DNA of 62,603 nt, the filler included, from Stramenopiles sp. TOSAG23-6 (lineage: Eukaryota): assembly GCA_900128565.1 (NCBI GenBank). It is 29 parts of 29 records of this genome, joined end to end, with 100 filler letters (N's around TTAATTAATTAA, not from the genome) between each part and the next. Parts side by side here need not be neighbours in the genome. Positions count along the whole stretch, not along the records: positions 32,559 to 34,617 come from LT638341.1; 28 more parts are not named here. The stretch is one strand, 5' to 3'. The translations under genes and the position numbers were made by a program. Below are positions 24,830 to 49,874 of this stretch, piece after piece (within the stretch, counting starts at the first letter, position 1; each line of letters starts with the position of its first letter). The notes beneath the pieces are model-generated. The model worked only from the letters and a program-made list of their open reading frames with translations, did not search any database and had not been told where the DNA came from.

Positions 24830-25775
24830 CGATAAAACTCAAAGTACAAAGCACAATTTTCAGCGACAACACCACCACCAGTAGAACTACACGTTCCACT
24901 GATACTTCTATGAAGAGGGCGATACGAAACTGTACGAGTTCCAGTAAAGTTGGAACGCTTTTCATCCTTTTCATCTTTTGACGGACTTTTCGAACATTTT
25001 TCATCTTTTGACTTTGTAGGTTTTTCACCATTTCCATCTTGCAGCACACCAATACTAGAATTATTCACAGAACTACTATTTTGATCATCACACTGCATTA
25101 AATGAAATAATTTGGATATTAAAAATTTATGACCGTGAGCGTTTGTGTCGCGAACAACTCTATCATGAGGATCTCTGTGTGTTGGGTATGGTCTCAATAG
25201 TGCATCAACAACACCAAGAGCTTCATCCACAACTTTATCATCAACAGCACTTAGCAAAGCAGCTAAGTGTTCGACAGAGTTATAAATATGGTTGTTGCGG
25301 CAATTGATAACGAGAAGTCGAGAAAAGCGAAGAATTTCCAATACAATTGGAAGCGTCACAGTAGGGTATCCAGCTTCTGCAGGAGTAGAAGCGACTGGTA
25401 TGTTTTTAGAAGCCAGACAAGCAGGTACAAGGCGACCAGCAGTGGCATGCTTTTCCAGAATAGTGTCGAATTTATTCAGTACGTTAACCCAAGTGAAAAG
25501 GTCGCCTCTATCAGCGAAGGGCCATATATCTATTCTACGAAGAAGCTTGACAAGTTTCTCACCTTCAGCATCCATAATTTTAGCTGCAAATGATGCATGA
25601 TCCTCTGGCTGTAATGTGAAATGATGGTAAAATATTGAAAATAAGATAAACATATGAACACATAGATTAGAAGACAATAAAAAAGACTTAAACGGGAAAC
25701 TGAACGTACCTTACTGAGCTCAGGTGTCGGTTGATCAGCTGTAGTTGGACCTAAGTCCTTACTTAACTTGACCAT
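24830..25775 (-). CDS. HUWE1/UPL1/Tom1-like E3 ligase N-terminus (DUF908); intron 25609-25709
   Basis: WPFADRGDLFTWVNVLNKFDTILE and ILRFSRLLVINCRNNHIYNSVEHLAALL. Confidence 0.85.
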
Positions 25776-32370: not shown

Positions 32371-32664
32371 GCATGTTCGTTTTATTTTTTTCAAATTCGA
32401 TGTTTTTTTTTTCGTACGAAATTTCGTACCTAACAAATTTAAGTTTTTTTTTTTTGAANNNNNNNNNNNNNNNNNNNNNNNNNNNNNNNNNNNNNNNNNN
32501 NNTTAATTAATTAANNNNNNNNNNNNNNNNNNNNNNNNNNNNNNNNNNNNNNNNNNNNATTTTGGAAAAATATTTGAAAAAAAAAATTTGAAAATTTGTT
32601 AGGTACAAAATTTACTATAAAAAAAAAAATTCGATTTTTTTGTTAAAAAAAAAATAAAACATAC

Positions 32665-33519
32665 ATTGTCATCACACGAAATTGTTTTGGCATTGACTCT
32701 GTGGCTAATGAAGTGATTACAGGCATGTATTGTGAAAAAATATGAATTGTAGCAAAAAAAAAACAAATCGTTAGGTACGAAATTTTCAAAAAAAAAAAAA
32801 AATTTGAAAGTGAAACAAATAAAACATGCATGTATTGTGAAATTTTTTTTTTTTTTTTTTTTTTTAGAGAAAAAAAAAATTTTTAGGAAAAAAATTTAAT
32901 TTCGTACGAAAAAAACAAAAAATCAAATTCAAAATTCAAAAAAAATAAAACATACATGAACCCTCCAATCATTACTCCACAACCTGCGCGACTTACTAAT
33001 AAAAAAGGAAAAGAAGTTGAAAATGTTGATAAAGTTCCTAGGAGTAAGAGTAACGCCATCGTAACAATTATAACTGGTTTTCTTCCATGGAGGTCAGCTA
33101 AACAACCAACAGAAAAGGCACCTAAAAAGAAACCTAGAAATACTGACGTATTGTGAAAAAATATTTCAAAAAAAAAATTTGAAAATTTGTTAGGTACAAA
33201 ATTTCGTACGAAAAAAAAAATAAAATTAAAATTTTGAAATTCCAAACGTACACGACCCAAGAAGACCTTCATTTGTTGCATCGAGATCCCATTTGCGACG
33301 TATTTGTGGAGTGATTAGTGCAATGACAAGAATTTCTTGGCCAAAACAAAGTGCAGTAAAAAGTGTCACAAAAATCATTGGTATGTGAAATGAGCTTTTT
33401 AAAACATCGCATCCGTCTAAAACATTTAGACGTCGACGCACAATATCCAGATTTGTTTTGTTTTTGAAGTTTTTGAGGTTTTTGAGGTTTTTACCGTTTT
33501 TGATCTTATCCTCATTCAT
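32665..33519 (-). CDS. MFS transporter (SVOP/SV2-related), 5' part; exons 33519-33252, 33145-32956, 32724-32665
   Basis: GLLGSSVFLGFFLGAFSVGCLADLHGRK (MFS motif A), SRAGCGVMIGGFMPV...ESMPKQFR. Confidence 0.9.
32725..32955 (-). mobile_element. Two tandem introner copies (32955-32830 GT...AT and 32829-32725 GC...AT) with no exon between
   Basis: TTC AT|GTATGT...CAATACAT|GCATGT...CAATACAT|G CCT gives GGFMPV. Confidence 0.8.
33146..33251 (-). mobile_element. Introner-family intron, GT...GT (106 nt)
   Basis: GGG TCG T|GTACGT...CACAATACGT|CA GTA TTT gives LGSSVF. Confidence 0.8.
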
Positions 33520-34201
33520 TTTTTTGAAGAATATTTGATTAATAGTTATATAATATCATACAGCTATTAGTAAAAAGGCAGTACAATCACTTGGAACTTC
33601 TACACGTCTGTCTCTTGTACCCGTGATATATTTTTTTTAGAATTTTCAAATTTAAATTATATTTTCCCTCCGCGCTCCTATACTTTCGTAGGCCTTCGGA
33701 GATTTTTTTCTCCAATAAAAACGAACAAACCTGTTTTGTTGCTCTTTCTCCCTCCTCCTCCAAGGTTTTCTATAACCTTGCCTCCTCTCTTGCTCTCTCG
33801 TATTGATTATTCAATATTGATATCATGTCGACTCTGCGGATAGTCTTATTTATACTAGTAATGCCGTAGTAATGTTTATTTTATTTCTTCTGATAATATC
33901 ATTGCATCTATATAGAACTTTTAGTAGAAACAATTGCATTGGAAAAAAGATACAACAAATTGTGATGTGGAAAGGGCGGAAAGTGCGTGTCAAGAAAGCG
34001 AACCTTTCCCTGAGTCTTGGTCATGGTGGAAACACGAGATTCTTTCCGAAGCGTATATTTTATTACCCAAAGTTTCTTTCTGATTGGATAAGCATTGAAA
34101 CATCATATAATAAAGTATAATTACTCATTATAATCAAAAAAATTTTATATTTAATCTTCCTCGACTCAATATTGCAATAAAAAGAACAAATTTTCCGTGT
34201 G

Positions 34202-34617
34202 TTAACTTACTGTTTTCGTTGTTACAGAACCATTCGAGTCATCCATGCCACTCATATCCATATCTGCATCAAGTTCAATAGGAGCCGGGCACTTACCTCC
34301 TCGTTTCTCAACTTCTGGATCGCATTTTGGGGTGAAAAATGCAACCTTTTCCGTAGGCCACCATATTCGACGCATGTTCCCTTCCTTTTCAGCTGCAAGC
34401 GCAAAAGCTCGAGTGCTTTTGTATTTTGCTTTTGCGTCATTTAAATAACTCTCCACATCTTGTAGTGTGTCTGCGATTCTTTTATCCTGGGCAATGAGTT
34501 TTTTTCGTGCGGCGCAATCATGTGGGTCAAGGGTTGGCTCCGTCAATATATCACAACGAACCTTGCCTTCATTATAACCTAATGTTTTGACGTTCATTGG
34601 CTCTGGTGGATCTAATT
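34202..34617 (-). CDS. Hypothetical protein, 3' part
   Basis: Open ORF of 131+ aa with normal composition. Confidence 0.55.
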
Positions 34618-36776: not shown

Positions 36777-36919
36777 NNNNNNNNNNNNNNNNNNNNNNNN
36801 NNNNNNNNNNNNNNNNNNNNTTAATTAATTAANNNNNNNNNNNNNNNNNNNNNNNNNNNNNNNNNNNNNNNNNNNNAAAAAAAAAAAAAAAAAAAAATCA
36901 TAATAATAGAAACAACGTA

Positions 36920-37346
36920 CATCTTCCATTTTTCGAATTAATCGTGATGAGGAATCATTCAATAATCTTGATTGTAAGTTACTGATTGGTGAGTTTTCGA
37001 TATCTATTATTGGACCAGCTGAAGTTTGTTTATTCTCCAAATCAAAGTTATCCTTTAGTTTTCTTTGCTCTTTGTCATTTGTTTGCTCATCATTGTCGTT
37101 TGTTTGCTCATCATTGTCAAGAACAAAATTTTCACCTTCTGAGGTGTCAAAAACACCTACCGTACCTCCATGTATACTTATATGTCCTAATTCATGAAGT
37201 GCAGGAGTGCGATACACATTTTCGTTGAGTAATGTTTGTATTTGTATATTCTTTTCTTCCTCTAAAGCATTCATATTATGGACACGTAAAAAAAGTTTCT
37301 GTCGAAAATGCAAAAAAAGTGTCTGTCGAAAATGCAAAAAAGCCAA
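36920..37346 (-). CDS. Hypothetical protein, 5' part (start uncertain)
   Basis: The ORF ends at a family donor (GAT|GTACGT, 36919). Confidence 0.45.
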
Positions 37347-37798
37347 AAAAGCTTGTTTTTGGTTTTGTTTTTTTGTCTTTTTTCCACAGCGGTCACTTAC
37401 TCTGTGTTCTTTTGGCTATTTTATAGTATACGCATTGATATATTTAGTATAGTAATAATGAACGTACTACATATCCTAGTATTTTATTAAGAGTAATCAT
37501 TCGTAGTACAACTAAAAAAAAAATTACAAAACATTAACAAAACATTACAAAAAGGAAAATGAAACTGCCAAACATCATATCATCATATAATGGACGCGTC
37601 GATAATTGCAAACAGGGTACCCGGTACCAAGCCCGGTACCTTGTAAAAAAGAAGTCAGTTTACAGTTCCATCATTCGATTCATCCAACACACGAGAGCTG
37701 TTTCATTCCAATATATACTCTACGACTACACTCGTAATTATCAATTTACTACACTCGTAATACACTCAAAAGACGCATTGTACCTCAAATATACTTAA

Positions 37799-38557
37799 AT
37801 GGCGGACACTTCACTTGATATGGAGTCTGAGAAGTTACTAAGCATTGTTGTCAATACGTGCCGTATGCTCAGCGCCCGTGACTTTGAAGTAATGGATGGC
37901 TGGAACACAGTGACTACACTTGAGCACTTGAGGAAGCAACTGATACAATACCAAGATAAAAAACTCTGTATTGATGCGTTAGGTATGGGTACGGGAGAGA
38001 AACTTCGTGTATTCTTTCCAAAAGATGAAAAGTTTAATATTAAAGTTCTCAAACATTTCTGTGAAGAAATGAGTTCGGAAAACATCCGACGAGGGATCTT
38101 TCTAATTCCTGGGACGATTACTCCACGAACAGTGTCTGCTCTTGGGGAAGTTGCACCGACATTTTTACTTGAACTTTTCTACCGCTATGAATTGCTTGTC
38201 GATATCACGCAGCATTATTTAGTACCCAAACATGTGTTGTTGACAAGTGAAGAGAAAGAACAATGTACGTTTTNTTTTTTTTTTTTTTTCAATTTTGATT
38301 TTGATTTTTTTTTCGTACGAAATTTCGTACCTAACGATTTTTTTATTAAATTTANAAAAAAAAAAAAAAAAAANATATATATATTTTTCCAAAATACAGT
38401 ATTAAAACGTTGTAAAGTAAAAGACACACAACTTCCAAGAATTGTGAAAAGTGATCCAATAGCTAGATACTTTGGTCTCCGAATTGGCGATGTTTTGAAA
38501 GTGTTTAGAAAATCAGTAAATGCAGGTAGATATGTCACATATAGAATCTGTTTATAA
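37799..38557 (+). CDS. RPB5: RNA polymerase I/II/III shared subunit RPB5; intron 38265-38399
   Basis: [74 protein letters not shown]. Confidence 0.97.
   Translation: [252 protein letters not shown]
38265..38399 (+). mobile_element. Introner-family intron ending in AG (135 nt)
   Basis: CAA T|GTACGT...CCAAAATACAG|TA TTA. It fixes the register of the family's 3' end (AATAC-NN). Confidence 0.9.
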
Positions 38558-39034
38558 TAAAATATACTATTATAAGTTGCTACTATATGTCTAGAAAATT
38601 TCATATTATACTCAACCCTATGTGTTTTCTAGTGCTTCTTATGCTTCTGCTTACTCCAGCGTCAACAATATCACGATTGCCAGTACTGATTTGACAACGG
38701 AAGGTCCGACACGCGCCGATTTCTACGGATTTTTTTTTTTTTTTTTTTTCTACCAAAAAATTTTTGTACATCTTCATTCGGTGCAAGTGCTGGTGCTGCT
38801 GGTGCTGCTGGTGCTGGTGCTGCTGGTGCTGGTGCTGCTGGTGCTGGTGCTGCTGGTGCTTCTGCTGTTGTTGCAGCTGCTTCTGTTGTTGGTCCTCCGA
38901 TGGCTTCTACGATCGTTGCCGCGGTCTTTGCATCNNNNNNNNNNNNNNNNNNNNNNNNNNNNNNNNNNNNNNNNNNNNTTAATTAATTAANNNNNNNNNN
39001 NNNNNNNNNNNNNNNNNNNNNNNNNNNNNNNNNN

Positions 39035-41092
39035 AAAAAAAAAAAAAAAAAAAAATCATAATAATAGAAACAACGTACATCTTCCATTTTTCGAATTAAT
39101 CGTGATGAGGAATCATTCAATAATCTTGATTGTAAGTTACTGATTGGTGAGTTTTCGATATCTATTATTGGACCAGCTGAAGTTTGTTTATTCTCCAAAT
39201 CAAAGTTATCCTTTAGTTTTCTTTGCTCTTTGTCATTTGTTTGCTCATCATTGTCGTTTGTTTGCTCATCATTGTCAAGAACAAAATTTTCACCTTCTGA
39301 GGTGTCAAAAACACCTACCGTACCTCCATGTATACTTATATGTCCTAATTCATGAAGTGCAGGAGTGCGATACACATTTTCGTTGAGTAATGTTTGTATT
39401 TGTATATTCTTTTCTTCCTCTAAAGCATTCATATTATGGACACGTAAAAAAAGTTTCTGTCGAAAATGCAAAAAAAGTGTCTGTCGAAAATGCAAAAAAG
39501 CCAAAAAAGCTTGTTTTTGGTTTTGTTTTTTTGTCTTTTTTCCACAGCGGTCACTTACTCTGTGTTCTTTTGGCTATTTTATAGTATACGCATTGATATA
39601 TTTAGTATAGTAATAATGAACGTACTACATATCCTAGTATTTTATTAAGAGTAATCATTCGTAGTACAACTAAAAAAAAAATTACAAAACATTAACAAAA
39701 CATTACAAAAAGGAAAATGAAACTGCCAAACATCATATCATCATATAATGGACGCGTCGATAATTGCAAACAGGGTACCCGGTACCAAGCCCGGTACCTT
39801 GTAAAAAAGAAGTCAGTTTACAGTTCCATCATTCGATTCATCCAACACACGAGAGCTGTTTCATTCCAATATATACTCTACGACTACACTCGTAATTATC
39901 AATTTACTACACTCGTAATACACTCAAAAGACGCATTGTACCTCAAATATACTTAAATGGCGGACACTTCACTTGATATGGAGTCTGAGAAGTTACTAAG
40001 CATTGTTGTCAATACGTGCCGTATGCTCAGCGCCCGTGACTTTGAAGTAATGGATGGCTGGAACACAGTGACTACACTTGAGCACTTGAGGAAGCAACTG
40101 ATACAATACCAAGATAAAAAACTCTGTATTGATGCGTTAGGTATGGGTACGGGAGAGAAACTTCGTGTATTCTTTCCAAAAGATGAAAAGTTTAATATTA
40201 AAGTTCTCAAACATTTCTGTGAAGAAATGAGTTCGGAAAACATCCGACGAGGGATCTTTCTAATTCCTGGGACGATTACTCCACGAACAGTGTCTGCTCT
40301 TGGGGAAGTTGCACCGACATTTTTACTTGAACTTTTCTACCGCTATGAATTGCTTGTCGATATCACGCAGCATTATTTAGTACCCAAACATGTGTTGTTG
40401 ACAAGTGAAGAGAAAGAACAATGTACGTTTTNTTTTTTTTTTTTTTTCAATTTTGATTTTGATTTTTTTTTCGTACGAAATTTCGTACCTAACGATTTTT
40501 TTATTAAATTTANAAAAAAAAAAAAAAAAAANATATATATATTTTTCCAAAATACAGTATTAAAACGTTGTAAAGTAAAAGACACACAACTTCCAAGAAT
40601 TGTGAAAAGTGATCCAATAGCTAGATACTTTGGTCTCCGAATTGGCGATGTTTTGAAAGTGTTTAGAAAATCAGTAAATGCAGGTAGATATGTCACATAT
40701 AGAATCTGTTTATAATAAAATATACTATTATAAGTTGCTACTATATGTCTAGAAAATTTCATATTATACTCAACCCTATGTGTTTTCTAGTGCTTCTTAT
40801 GCTTCTGCTTACTCCAGCGTCAACAATATCACGATTGCCAGTACTGATTTGACAACGGAAGGTCCGACACGCGCCGATTTCTACGGATTTTTTTTTTTTT
40901 TTTTTTTCTACCAAAAAATTTTTGTACATCTTCATTCGGTGCAAGTGCTGGTGCTGCTGGTGCTGCTGGTGCTGGTGCTGCTGGTGCTGGTGCTGCTGGT
41001 GCTGGTGCTGCTGGTGCTTCTGCTGTTGTTGCAGCTGCTTCTGTTGTTGGTCCTCCGATGGCTTCTACGATCGTTGCCGCGGTCTTTGCATC
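39035..41092. repeat. Exact duplicate of contig 36877-38934
   Basis: Identical at offset 2158, including internal Ns. Confidence 0.97.
39957..40715 (+). CDS. RPB5: RPB5 (duplicate copy); intron 40423-40557
   Basis: Identical to 37799-38557. Confidence 0.95.
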   Translation: [252 protein letters not shown]

Positions 41093-41247: not shown

Positions 41248-42159
41248 TGTCCAAATGAATGAAGAGCACACGAAATATTTAAAAAGAGGCTTACACTGCC
41301 ATGAATCAAATAGTGCATTTTTATATAAATTACAACATACGTTACCAGGCACCCATGTCACAAGTATTACCGGGTTACATTATTTTAGTAAAGAATTGAC
41401 ATCAATGGATGATTTTTTATCAAGTACGTTTTAAATTTTTTCATTTTTTATTTTTTTTTTAGTATAAAATTTTCATAGTTAAAAAAAAAAAAAATTTGAA
41501 AAAAATTTTGAAAAATTTTGAAATTTTTTTTGTTACAATGAAAAATCTAAAATTCTTTTTTTTATTTTTTGAAATATTCTTACACAATTTATACTCGGAA
41601 AGTACAACATTACAATCCCATAGGTCAAAACACAATGCGGTACGTTTTCTTATTGAATTTATGAATTTATTTTTTTTTGAAAAATTTTGAAAAATTTCGA
41701 AAATATTTTTATACTAACAAAAAAAATTATTATTTGAAAAAAAAAAAAATATTTGTATACAAAAAATGTAGTATCGTTATCAAGGAACGGTAGAATGAAA
41801 ATTCATACTTTAAATGATAATTGTACGATGAATGATCGATGGGTTTTGACATCATTGTATGTTTTTATTTTTATTATTTTTTTTTTATACAAAATTTCAT
41901 ACCTAACAAATTTTTTTTTTTAATTTTTTTTTTTTTTTTTTAAATACAAAATTTCATACCTAACAAAAGTATTAAAATGTTTTACAAATATTTCTTCACA
42001 ATACTTTTATCAGTCACAAACCTGTTCAAGGTCTCCGTTTACACATTTAAATCATTATAATTCCTCTATACAAACTTATGTAGCAAAATCAATATGTTTA
42101 CCATTTATAAATGCTGTTGTTATAGGAAGCACTTCTGTATGTTTTATATGAATTTTTAA

Positions 42160-47657: not shown

Positions 47658-48752
47658 ATTGATGACCGTGAATTTTCAAGTTGTAACTTCAAATCATCCA
47701 ACTCATAATATCCCATCCTCCTCGAACGGACTCTAGAAACATTTTTTACACCAAAGACTGATTTTGTAAGTTTAGTAATTCGTTTTAATGTTTCAGGATC
47801 GCTCTCATCCACCAATTCTCGAATATTGTTCCATCCTATTCGGGCACCGGTATTAACAATAAGCCCACCAATTATTATACCTGCCATTGGGTCAACTAAT
47901 GGTAGACCCATAAAGGAACCACATATACCGCCCAAGGCAACAAGAGACGAAAGAGCATCAGAACGATGGTGCCAAGCGTTCGCTACCAAAGTTTGACTTC
48001 CAAGTAATGTGAAAAAATATTTTTTTTATTTTGTTTTGTTAGGTACGCAATTTCGTACAAAACAAAATTGGAAAATAAAATTGAAAACATACAATATGGC
48101 GAGCCACACTTATCGTTTTACGGTATAATACTTCTTTCATGATGATAGCACTGGAAGCAACAGACGCAGCAATTATTGGTCCTACCTTTACTTCCTCAGT
48201 AGTGCCCAGAAAATCTGACAATGCTTCACTTAAAGTTTGATCACTTCCGAATACACTCAAGTCTGTTATCTGATCAACTAAAAATTGATCCGTTCCAAAT
48301 TGAAGCAACGGTTCTATCGACATCAATAACTGGTCATAAGAATGTGTCACTATGTTGACACCAGCAACCGTTAACAAAGCGCCAATGGATAAAGCACCCA
48401 TTGTTTCGAATTTACCGTGCCCATACGGATGATCTTCATCTGCAGGTGTTCGACTAAGGCGAACAGCAAAGACTGTTAGCGCATCTGAAAACAAATCGGA
48501 TAAAGAATGGGCAGCATCTGCAAGTAGGGCCGTTGAACCAGTTAGATAACCAATCGCACCTTTAGAACCAGCTAGTCCGACGTTAACGACTGCTCCGACT
48601 TTCGTAATATGAACACCAGCGGCAGCATCCTTCTCTCCCATTTTATCATGCTTGGTTTTCGTTGAAATACATTGAAATTGACGAGGAACAATATACCTTC
48701 TACGAATGAACTGGTTTGAAAATGCAAATCTATGTATATGGTATCGGCGCAT
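47658..48752 (-). CDS. Mitochondrial CDF metal transporter (MMT1/MTP6-like); intron 48002-48092
   Basis: ALLADAAHSLSD, HPYGHGKFE, ANAWHHRSDALSS. Confidence 0.93.
48002..48092 (-). mobile_element. Introner-family intron, GT...TT (91 nt)
   Basis: CAT ATT|GTATGT...CACATTACTT|GGA AGT gives YRKTISVARHIGSQTLVANAWHH with CDF-typical spacing. Confidence 0.85.
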
Positions 48753-49102
48753 GTAATTTAGAAACATCGTCACAAAAGGACGATTTACTAAGAATCAGTA
48801 AGAAGGTATTTACGAGGCGAAAGTCGAAACGGTTTACGTCAAAAAAATACCCTAACCCTACCGTAAAAAACTACTGTAGTAACCGTTAAAAGTTAAAACT
48901 TGCAGCTCAACGTTCATGAAGAATTTGCGGAGAAGATACTGGTACACCTGTTCAATAGAGTTTCTATCGAGTGAGATCAATTTTAATGCCAGCAGCATCA
49001 CCAAAAGGACTTCAAAAAAAGGCGAAACCAGCTATGGAGTGGACCCCTTCTCTCAATTTGAAGCTCTTAAAGCTCAGTAGATAGTATCTGTTTAATTGGG
49101 AA

Positions 49103-49615: not shown

Positions 49616-49874
49616 GTATGTTTTATTTTTTTTCAAATTCGATTGTTTTTTCGCACGAAATTTTGTACCTAACAAATTTTAGTTTTTTTTTGAAATATTT
49701 TTCCAAAATNNNNNNNNNNNNNNNNNNNNNNNNNNNNNNNNNNNNNNNNNNNNTTAATTAATTAANNNNNNNNNNNNNNNNNNNNNNNNNNNNNNNNNNN
49801 NNNNNNNNNTTAGGTACAAAATTTCGTACGAAAAAAAAATTCAATTTCAAATTAAAAAAAAAAATAAAACATAC

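Follow-up and report, generated by a model that had tools for sequence, protein, structure and literature searches.

Families of introns derived from transposons in marine protists, termed introners, were reportedly described by Huff et al. in 2016. Introners are likewise treated as transposon-derived intron families of marine protists by Gozashti et al. (2022, PMC9860276), and non-canonical introner elements are described from Amoebophrya A25 and A120 by Farhat et al. (2021, PMC7789003). According to the latter account, the Amoebophrya elements resemble miniature inverted-repeat transposable elements and encode no transposase; inverted repeats of 8-20 nt join their ends, direct repeats of 3-5 nt accompany them, their terminal dinucleotides are not conserved and they are supported by RNA sequencing (RNA-seq). 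Here we describe two members of a repeated element family, elements A and B, that lie back to back in a gene for a transporter of the major facilitator superfamily (MFS) within a 62,603-nt stretch of DNA (hereafter the window) from Stramenopiles sp. TOSAG23-6. The tandem and its family resemble introners but would mostly have 3' ends other than AG, and the two elements may well leave the transcript as one composite intron.

Elements of this family have the form GTAYGT..TACCTAAC..YCAMAATAC, are 85-194 nt long and carry a 2-nt duplication at their flanks. Like the introners of Gozashti et al. (PMC9860276), they constitute a high-copy family of short non-coding elements that stand in unrelated genes of an aquatic host, in the sense orientation, with target-site duplications (TSDs) and a 5' splice site of their own, and their removal would leave the length of the mRNA unchanged. 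Many similar copies occur in different genes and exact removal restores the coding sequence, both as in introners, but the GY...AG termini of introners are missing: only 4 of the 26 copies have AG as the 2-nt duplication, the other 22 having AT, TT, GT or TA, so that it does not supply an AG. A preliminary description of the locus called the elements introners and did not mention that a terminal AG is missing from both copies and from the greater part of the family; to treat them as ordinary introners thus passes over their main peculiarity. With the Amoebophrya elements as described in PMC7789003, the family shares a marine protist host, repetition, short direct repeats over the exon/intron borders, ends other than GT-AG and an ambiguous position of the cut; unlike them, it has retained a strong GTAYGT donor, an TACCTAAC box in its interior and a 3' box that is conserved. 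Its terminal symmetry is about 4 nt with a 2-nt repeat, so that the border repeat and non-GT-AG ends of the Amoebophrya type are present and the terminal inverted repeat of 8-20 nt is not. The hosts also differ, a stramenopile here and an alveolate in Amoebophrya, and the Amoebophrya cases are backed by RNA-seq, the present ones being judged from genomic sequence. The word 'tandem' is absent from the main text of PMC9860276, as are both 'tandem' and 'nested' from that of PMC12130899.

The window is made up of 29 contigs, each of 2,047-2,081 bp, ordered from longest to shortest and chained via linkers of the form N44-TTAATTAATTAA-N44 (e.g. 32459-32558), so genes on either side of a linker are not adjacent genomically. 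The tandem site is within contig 16 (32559-34617; 2,059 bp), 167 bases from the contig end. On the minus strand, exon 2 of the MFS gene ends ..GGA GGG TTC AT and is followed by element A, AT, element B, AT and then exon 3, which begins G CCT GTA.. (Table 1). The arrangement AT-A-AT-B-AT, proposed in the preliminary description as back-to-back elements around a zero-length exon, was confirmed, and A, B and the two AT that follow them occupy exactly 231 nt (32725-32955). Exon 2 matches the profiles MFS_1 (positions 42-102) and Sugar_tr (positions 56-118). Using this exon, 33 homologues were found at E<=0.001, and 17 were picked by length and coverage for alignment. When all 231 nt are taken out, the model reads ..GGF/MPVITSLATE.. 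(slashes here and below marking junctions) and runs without a gap through to the E..P motif in 10 of the 17 homologues; four others have a one-residue deletion a few residues past the junction, and three are truncated or unalignable there. No exon has been lost between A and B, the protein left by the 231-nt removal being colinear with its homologues. The normal MFS spacing claimed earlier is therefore borne out, and the missing exon that would have undone the claim was not found. Element A holds an in-frame TAA, and its retention would give a stop. Element B with its AT is 105 nt long and free of stops in the gene frame; retained alone, B would put 35 in-frame residues into transmembrane segment (TM) 4 and would not truncate the protein. 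Besides A and B, the gene carries two more copies of the family, one in intron 1 (33251-33146) and one starting at 32664.

Table 1. Features of the MFS transporter gene and of its family elements, in window coordinates.
Feature	Position	Strand	Remarks
MFS exon 1	33252..33519	minus	ATG at 33519-33517; open frame; codon phase 1 at the exon end; alignable with MFS homologues in the joined model
MFS intron 1	33146..33251	minus	family element 33251-33148 plus GT (33147-33146); flanks GT/GT
MFS exon 2	32956..33145	minus	TM2-TM4 region with GRK motif
Element A	32832..32955	minus	124 nt; GTATGT donor; ends CACAATAC; 3' box ATTTCACAATAC
Core TTCGTACGAAA of element A	32910-32900	minus	
Run of 23 A in element A	32865-32843	minus	
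Degraded branch-type box of element A	32880..32890	minus	TTTCCTAAAAA where ..GTACCTAAC.. is expected
AT between the elements	32830..32831	minus	middle copy of the triplicated target dinucleotide; exon-free
Element B	32727..32829	minus	103 nt; GCATGT donor; without core; ends CACAATAC; 3' box TTTTCACAATAC
Run of 15 T in element B	32802-32788	minus	
Intact GTACCTAAC box of element B	32770..32778	minus	43 nt upstream of the end of B
AT after element B	32725..32726	minus	this AT or, to the same effect, the one before A would leave the mRNA along with the elements (frame test and alignment)
MFS exon 3	32665..32724	minus	..PVITSLATESMPKQFRVMT.., region of the E..P...R motif
Fourth family element, start only	32559..32664	minus	GTATGT at 32664; cut by the contig end

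Both A and B are full-length members of one dispersed family and not chance resemblances. A 17-mer around the internal box has 22 matches at <=2 mismatches in the window against 0.02 expected, and the 12-mer of the family 3' end has 24 matches against 1.7 expected. Two contigs that duplicate others (contigs 3 and 19) were dropped from every count, leaving 55,619 bases of unique sequence; in these 55.6 kb, 26 copies were curated, 21 of which entered the copy alignment and identity comparison. Among the 26, the 5' hexamer is GTATGT in 14, GTACGT in 9, GCATGT in 2 and GCAGGT in 1, giving a 5' dinucleotide of GT in 23 and of GC in three, namely B and two solitary copies. The palindromic core TTCGTACGAAA is present in 15 of 26. 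The TACCTAAC box is exact in 24 copies and has one mismatch in another, A being the sole copy without the box at <=1 mismatch. Of the 24 exact boxes, 22 stand 28-47 nt ahead of the element end, where the 3' box reads YCAMAATAC. Contigs attracted by the element number 5,712 in DNA run X1 (119,919 in all), 3,637 in seawater metagenome X3 and 765 in RNA run X5; the genome therefore carries thousands of copies. A search of metagenome contigs with the element pattern gave one locus, with the layout AT/GTATGT..CACAATAC/AT/G inside an open frame, and no orthologous locus of MFS exon 2 was found among metagenome contigs. No transposase was found among 49 scanned open reading frames (ORFs), and no Rfam family matches within the window. 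The only terminal symmetry is GTAT/ATAC (~4 nt; about 4-7 bp if the palindromic AT duplication is included).

Other copies and introns in the window bear on the form of the family. A kinase and EF-hand gene at 49810-51860 (contig 24, minus strand) holds at least 8 family elements in 2 kb, between exons of 43-164 nt, while the copy at 41857-42004 (plus strand) has an internal duplication of the box-bearing segment and hence two branch-type boxes. Three candidate introns (25611-25709, 57387-57540 and 11876-12010) are without the internal boxes of the family; they start GTAYGT and end ..CACATTACAG, ..TTTCACAG or ..AATAATACAG. As these ends resemble the element 3' box followed by AG, the element ends may mimic the ordinary intron signals of the host.

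The dinucleotides before and after the element are identical in 19 of the 26 copies (AT/AT 13, TT/TT 4, GT/GT 1, AG/AG 1). When partners were shuffled, the mean was 11.4 matches (P=7.5e-5 for the 19 observed), and the six matches other than AT were not reached in any of 200,000 shuffles. Flanks are unequal in the other seven copies: AT/AG in three, GT/AT in copies 53856 and 52211, TA/AT in copy 59822 and AT/TA in one. Directly after the duplication stands a G in 17 of 26 copies, whereas G makes up 16% of the bases of the window as a whole (GC content ~32%). A role of the flanking dinucleotide as a 2-nt TSD is supported family-wide.

The matching flanks are in line with the earlier proposal that a second element inserted into the TSD of the first, and so are the relationships of A and B. 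Their global identity is 0.63 and the family mean is 0.64; 119 of the 210 pairs among 21 copies are closer than A and B. The nearest copy to A is 38265 (0.73), also with a long A-run, and the nearest to B is 52211 (0.78). Element A has the core and no box, B the box and no core. Since A and B are not mutual closest relatives and their identity is the family average, the comparison favours two independent insertions at one AT over local duplication or assembly expansion. A short non-autonomous mobile element with a preference for WT followed by G would have entered one AT, that of the Met codon after GGF, in two separate insertion events. Every element begins with G, so insertion recreates AT-G at the 5' junction and a used AT stays a good target; restoration of AT-G at each 5' junction would thus favour re-insertion at a used site. 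By a rough estimate, the chance of one shared insertion site per window is ~6-15% (26-40 copies; 4,876 WTG sites; 55,619 bases), so the tandem requires no special mechanism; on target preference alone, some tens of back-to-back pairs would be expected, roughly, in a genome. Unequal exchange or slippage between flanking AT-G repeats would also yield AT-E-AT-E-AT (E standing for an element), and a single element could have been duplicated in tandem with its AT and later diverged. This is unlikely given the identities and nearest copies just described, and A and B differ besides in core, box and the architecture of A-run and T-run. It is very unlikely that the tandem is an artefact, either a mis-assembly or a chimera of whole-genome amplification, and that the true locus has one element. 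The contigs are ~2 kb long, contig 17 and its reverse complement agree at 99.6%, contigs 2 and 3 as well as 18 and 19 are exact duplicates and the element is highly repetitive, all of which could favour an artefact. However, A and B differ along their full length and so are no simple expansion of one copy; the few bases shared at the A/B joint are too short to mislead an assembler; the flanking exons 2 and 3 are consecutive parts of one protein; and a chimera would need to add exactly one complete element and AT at the duplication.

What must be removed at each copy was judged by a frame test, in which the longest open frames were taken on each side. Removal of the element plus 2 nt was needed in all 25 copies with a well-defined 3' box in the automatic test and in 24 of 25 after hand reading; among six copies with a poorly defined end, element plus 2 nt was the outcome in one. 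The dinucleotide that leaves with the element in the 26 copies is AT in 16, TT in 4, AG in 4, GT in 1 and TA in 1, with AT for both A and B. Judged by these frames, the family does not make GY-AG introns, and most copies are without a terminal AG. The 3' cut would fall two nt beyond the conserved 3' box, whichever dinucleotide stands there; as the repeat stands at both borders, the cut could equally fall two bases to the left at both ends.

Domain profiles and homologues give the frames independent backing at several junctions. At the TT/TT copy 48092 in a Cation_efflux (CDF) gene, residue 233 of the upstream exon corresponds to profile position 130 and residue 2 of the downstream exon to position 133, and homologue P0003 runs colinear through ..VARHI/GSQTLVANAWHH.. 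at this junction. For the CDF gene, the public model P0002 (EukProt label; 47660-48794, contig 23, minus strand) uses another junction at this TT-flanked element and is without GSQTLVA, seven residues of the conserved TM5 metal-site region that P0003 keeps; it also omits two stretches that are continuous ORF in the window. At the AC/AT copy 28532, residue 172 lies at position 97 of the RNase_PH profile and residue 1 of the next exon at 101, and at the AT/AG copy 38265 the match to Rpb5_C covers positions 1-22, then one junction codon, then 24-73. Two kinase junctions read ..GTTA/Y/WSPE.. and ..LICR/M/LDPRPEKR.., with Pkinase positions 165-188 matched. In a kinesin gene, the junction is based on the exon end ..IYDL and the TTG junction codon that follows it, the downstream exon having a weak profile match only (E=0.009) and no PDB match. 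In MFS intron 1, an AG acceptor (TTTCTAG; 33134-33147, minus strand) is available 12 nt past the element. Its use would delete SVFL, opposite which residues are present in 17 of 17 aligned homologues, which points to the non-AG junction after element plus GT; the MFS_1 score is 28.0 bits for the longer exon against 26.4 bits.

Several known kinds of intervening sequence were considered for the family and rejected. U12-type AT-AC introns have a 5' consensus of the ATATCC type and a branch box ~10-20 nt from the 3' end. The 5' end of the present elements would read ATGTAYGT if cut in this way, their box and 3' end lie 28-47 nt apart in 22 of 24 copies, and the TT- and GT-flanked copies cannot be AT-AC. 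Internal eliminated sequences (IES) of ciliates are bounded by TA and removed from DNA, in hosts with nuclear dualism and usually a variant code. Here the flanks are AT, TT, GT or AG, TA bounds yield no consistent product, and frames of 500-700 codons in the window are free of all three stop codons. TA-bounded insertion of the mariner or IES type fails also at the 5' end of B, where no TA stands in register, and would add two residues absent from homologues. Helitron-like insertion between A and T would require other element ends for the TT- and GT-flanked copies. Guidance of the 3' cut by a terminal helix was rejected as well, the GTAY/RTAC pairing showing no compensatory change: GTACGT copies keep ..ATAC or ..ATAT.

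How the tandem itself is removed is suggested by the decay of its parts. The whole 231 nt would be absent from the mRNA, presumably through removal at the RNA level. We consider a single composite intron, in which the GTATGT donor of A works with the TACCTAAC box and the 3' box of B, to be the best reading, with a probability of roughly 55%. In such an intron the branch box and 3' box of A and the donor of B would become dispensable, and the composite is favoured because A is without a box and B has the rarer GC donor (3/26). The preliminary description had seen the degraded branch motif of the first copy as fitting decay into one 231-nt intron; this accords with A being the only one of 26 copies without TACCTAAC. 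Were one box-less copy to fall at random among the 26, it would be A with a chance of ~1 in 26. Its other suggestion, homopolymer errors, has to be given up, as the box of A is altered by substitutions and not in homopolymer length (TTTCCTAAAAA at 32890-32880 against TACCTAAC in 24 of 26 copies). In the predicted fold of the tandem, the 23-A run of A pairs with the 15-T run of B, and the fold is no better than those of shuffled sequences (z = -0.74). More broadly, and tentatively, the uncultured host may remove introns of transposon origin by the thousand, with a 3' cut that is fixed by its distance of two nt past YCAMAATAC and not by AG; such a system would work at almost any WT/G, and A and B would be two such introns in the course of fusing, with the internal branch box decayed.

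A number of observations weigh against these proposals. The 3' box of A is still intact and GC donors occur also in two solitary copies, so the decay pattern fits the composite intron only partly. Copy 50874, one of the 25, has on hand reading an acceptor of the ordinary AG kind, located 3 nt beyond the box as aligned. Junction 51228 (element 51228-51115; poorly defined end), where the upstream exon is not kinase-like, matches no simple model, the element-plus-2 rule included. The absence of covariation in the terminal GTAY/RTAC pairing leaves the helix unsupported as a guide for the cut. Run contigs (assembled, not raw reads) were aligned to contig 16 alone, with 32777-32899 passed over as repeat; no DNA contig among those listed spans the tandem, and the joint of exon 2 to exon 3 is not among the listed joints of RNA and DNA run contigs. 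Joints that skip 186-230 or go back stem from other family copies or internal duplications that map piecewise and were not counted as evidence. Among the unique parts listed, the RNA contigs of X5 cover 33469-33611 and 34287-34588 only. Poly-A RNA contigs do contain the element (765 contigs in X5), at a ratio to flanking exon depth about that of DNA run X3, so unspliced RNA and DNA carry-over are indistinguishable and the ratio gives no support for efficient removal. Protein searches with MFS exon 2 and the kinase exon for longer transcript-derived or annotated proteins over a junction found none. The runs that hold most of the window may be the source of the assembly itself, which shows amplification artefacts in the self-palindrome of contig 17 and in two duplicated contigs; with these artefacts and no listed bridging contig, a small doubt on the tandem remains.

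Two other accounts of removal have to be weighed against the composite intron. Drosophila ratchet points are cases of recursive splicing with zero-nucleotide exons, described as RNA-supported AG/GT sites in very long introns (bioRxiv 10.1101/006163). The tandem is like them in that a 3' end and a 5' splice site adjoin directly, without an intervening exon, and stepwise removal could be envisaged; unlike them, it consists of two short mobile elements that abut in a junction ..AC AT/GC... If A and B were separate introns removed in any order, the middle AT would go with whichever left first, regenerating the AT/GCATGT donor or the 3' end. In both A and B the 5' end is still of the donor type and the 3' box undamaged, a solitary copy with a GCATGT donor stands in open frames (1541), and taking out either element alone leaves the flanks of the other unchanged. 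Nevertheless, A is without the TACCTAAC box, which is retained in each of the 25 remaining curated copies, so that A alone would miss a seemingly essential signal, and stepwise removal is for this reason rather doubtful and not favoured. That there is no removal from RNA at all, the gene being dead or the elements being cut from DNA in expressed nuclei as in ciliates, is highly improbable. The absence of AG at the 3' ends, the lack of an observed RNA junction and the element sequence in poly-A RNA contigs could all be so explained, and exact transposon excision would leave precisely the loss of an element and one duplicated dinucleotide. However, the copies are old (mean identity 0.64) but show hardly any variation in the donor, the TACCTAAC box or the 3' box, which argues for selection for the removal of each. 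The 5' end is a textbook donor hexamer, and core motifs of Rpb5, RNase PH, the CDF transporter, kinesin and kinase are interrupted in genes that are otherwise undamaged. A ciliate code is at odds with the long frames, in which none of the three stops occurs, and the unequal flanking dinucleotides in 7 of 26 copies would not be tolerated by pointer-guided DNA excision.

Stwintrons, the spliceosomal twin introns of fungi, were also considered for the tandem. They are described as repeated and mobile in some cases, with an inner intron that splits a splice signal of the outer one and so forces the order of removal (PMC8469720, PMC9024468). As in stwintrons, two intron units make up one complex intervening sequence here, but A and B abut as complete units with no signal split, and the assignment was rejected.

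The host is probably a marine stramenopile (MAST) of the MAST-3 type, as a protein from another contig has a public match, with shared exons identical, whose label contains 'MAST32', and its next matches are from brown algae and oomycetes. Among the papers searched, none pairs 'MAST-3' with 'introner', and intron features are not discussed in the main text of two MAST genome papers; the supplements of the introner surveys and of the MAST papers could list the family. The window sequence has shares of 0.71 and 0.62 in two small DNA runs from a single organism; it occurs also in seawater metagenomes and, at a low share, in poly-A metatranscriptomes. Contigs 2 and 3 (2182-4260 and 4361-6439) and contigs 18 and 19 (36877-38934 and 39035-41092) are 100% identical over their full length, and contig 17 (34718-36776; 2,059 bp) matches its reverse complement as a whole; the latter resembles an inverted chimera of whole-genome amplification, or is a real long palindrome. 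Contig 4 (6540-8617) has a GC content of 55% against ~32% elsewhere, with long ORFs that overlap on both strands and no Pfam match, and is possibly a contaminant or another kind of DNA.

Bursts of intron gain are at present best explained by introners, and the families described so far make GY-AG introns, which limits the insertion sites that can be tolerated. A 3' boundary that is apparently indifferent to AG could open far more sites to colonisation, which would explain the very high copy number found here. Gene callers restricted to canonical introns would mis-predict genes in such genomes, as happened with the CDF model. In the tandem, the outcome of two mobile introns landing on one site can be viewed directly, which is rare. 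The tandem also serves as an internal control for which boxes removal needs, and gives a testable prediction, that of one composite intron dependent on the branch box of B.

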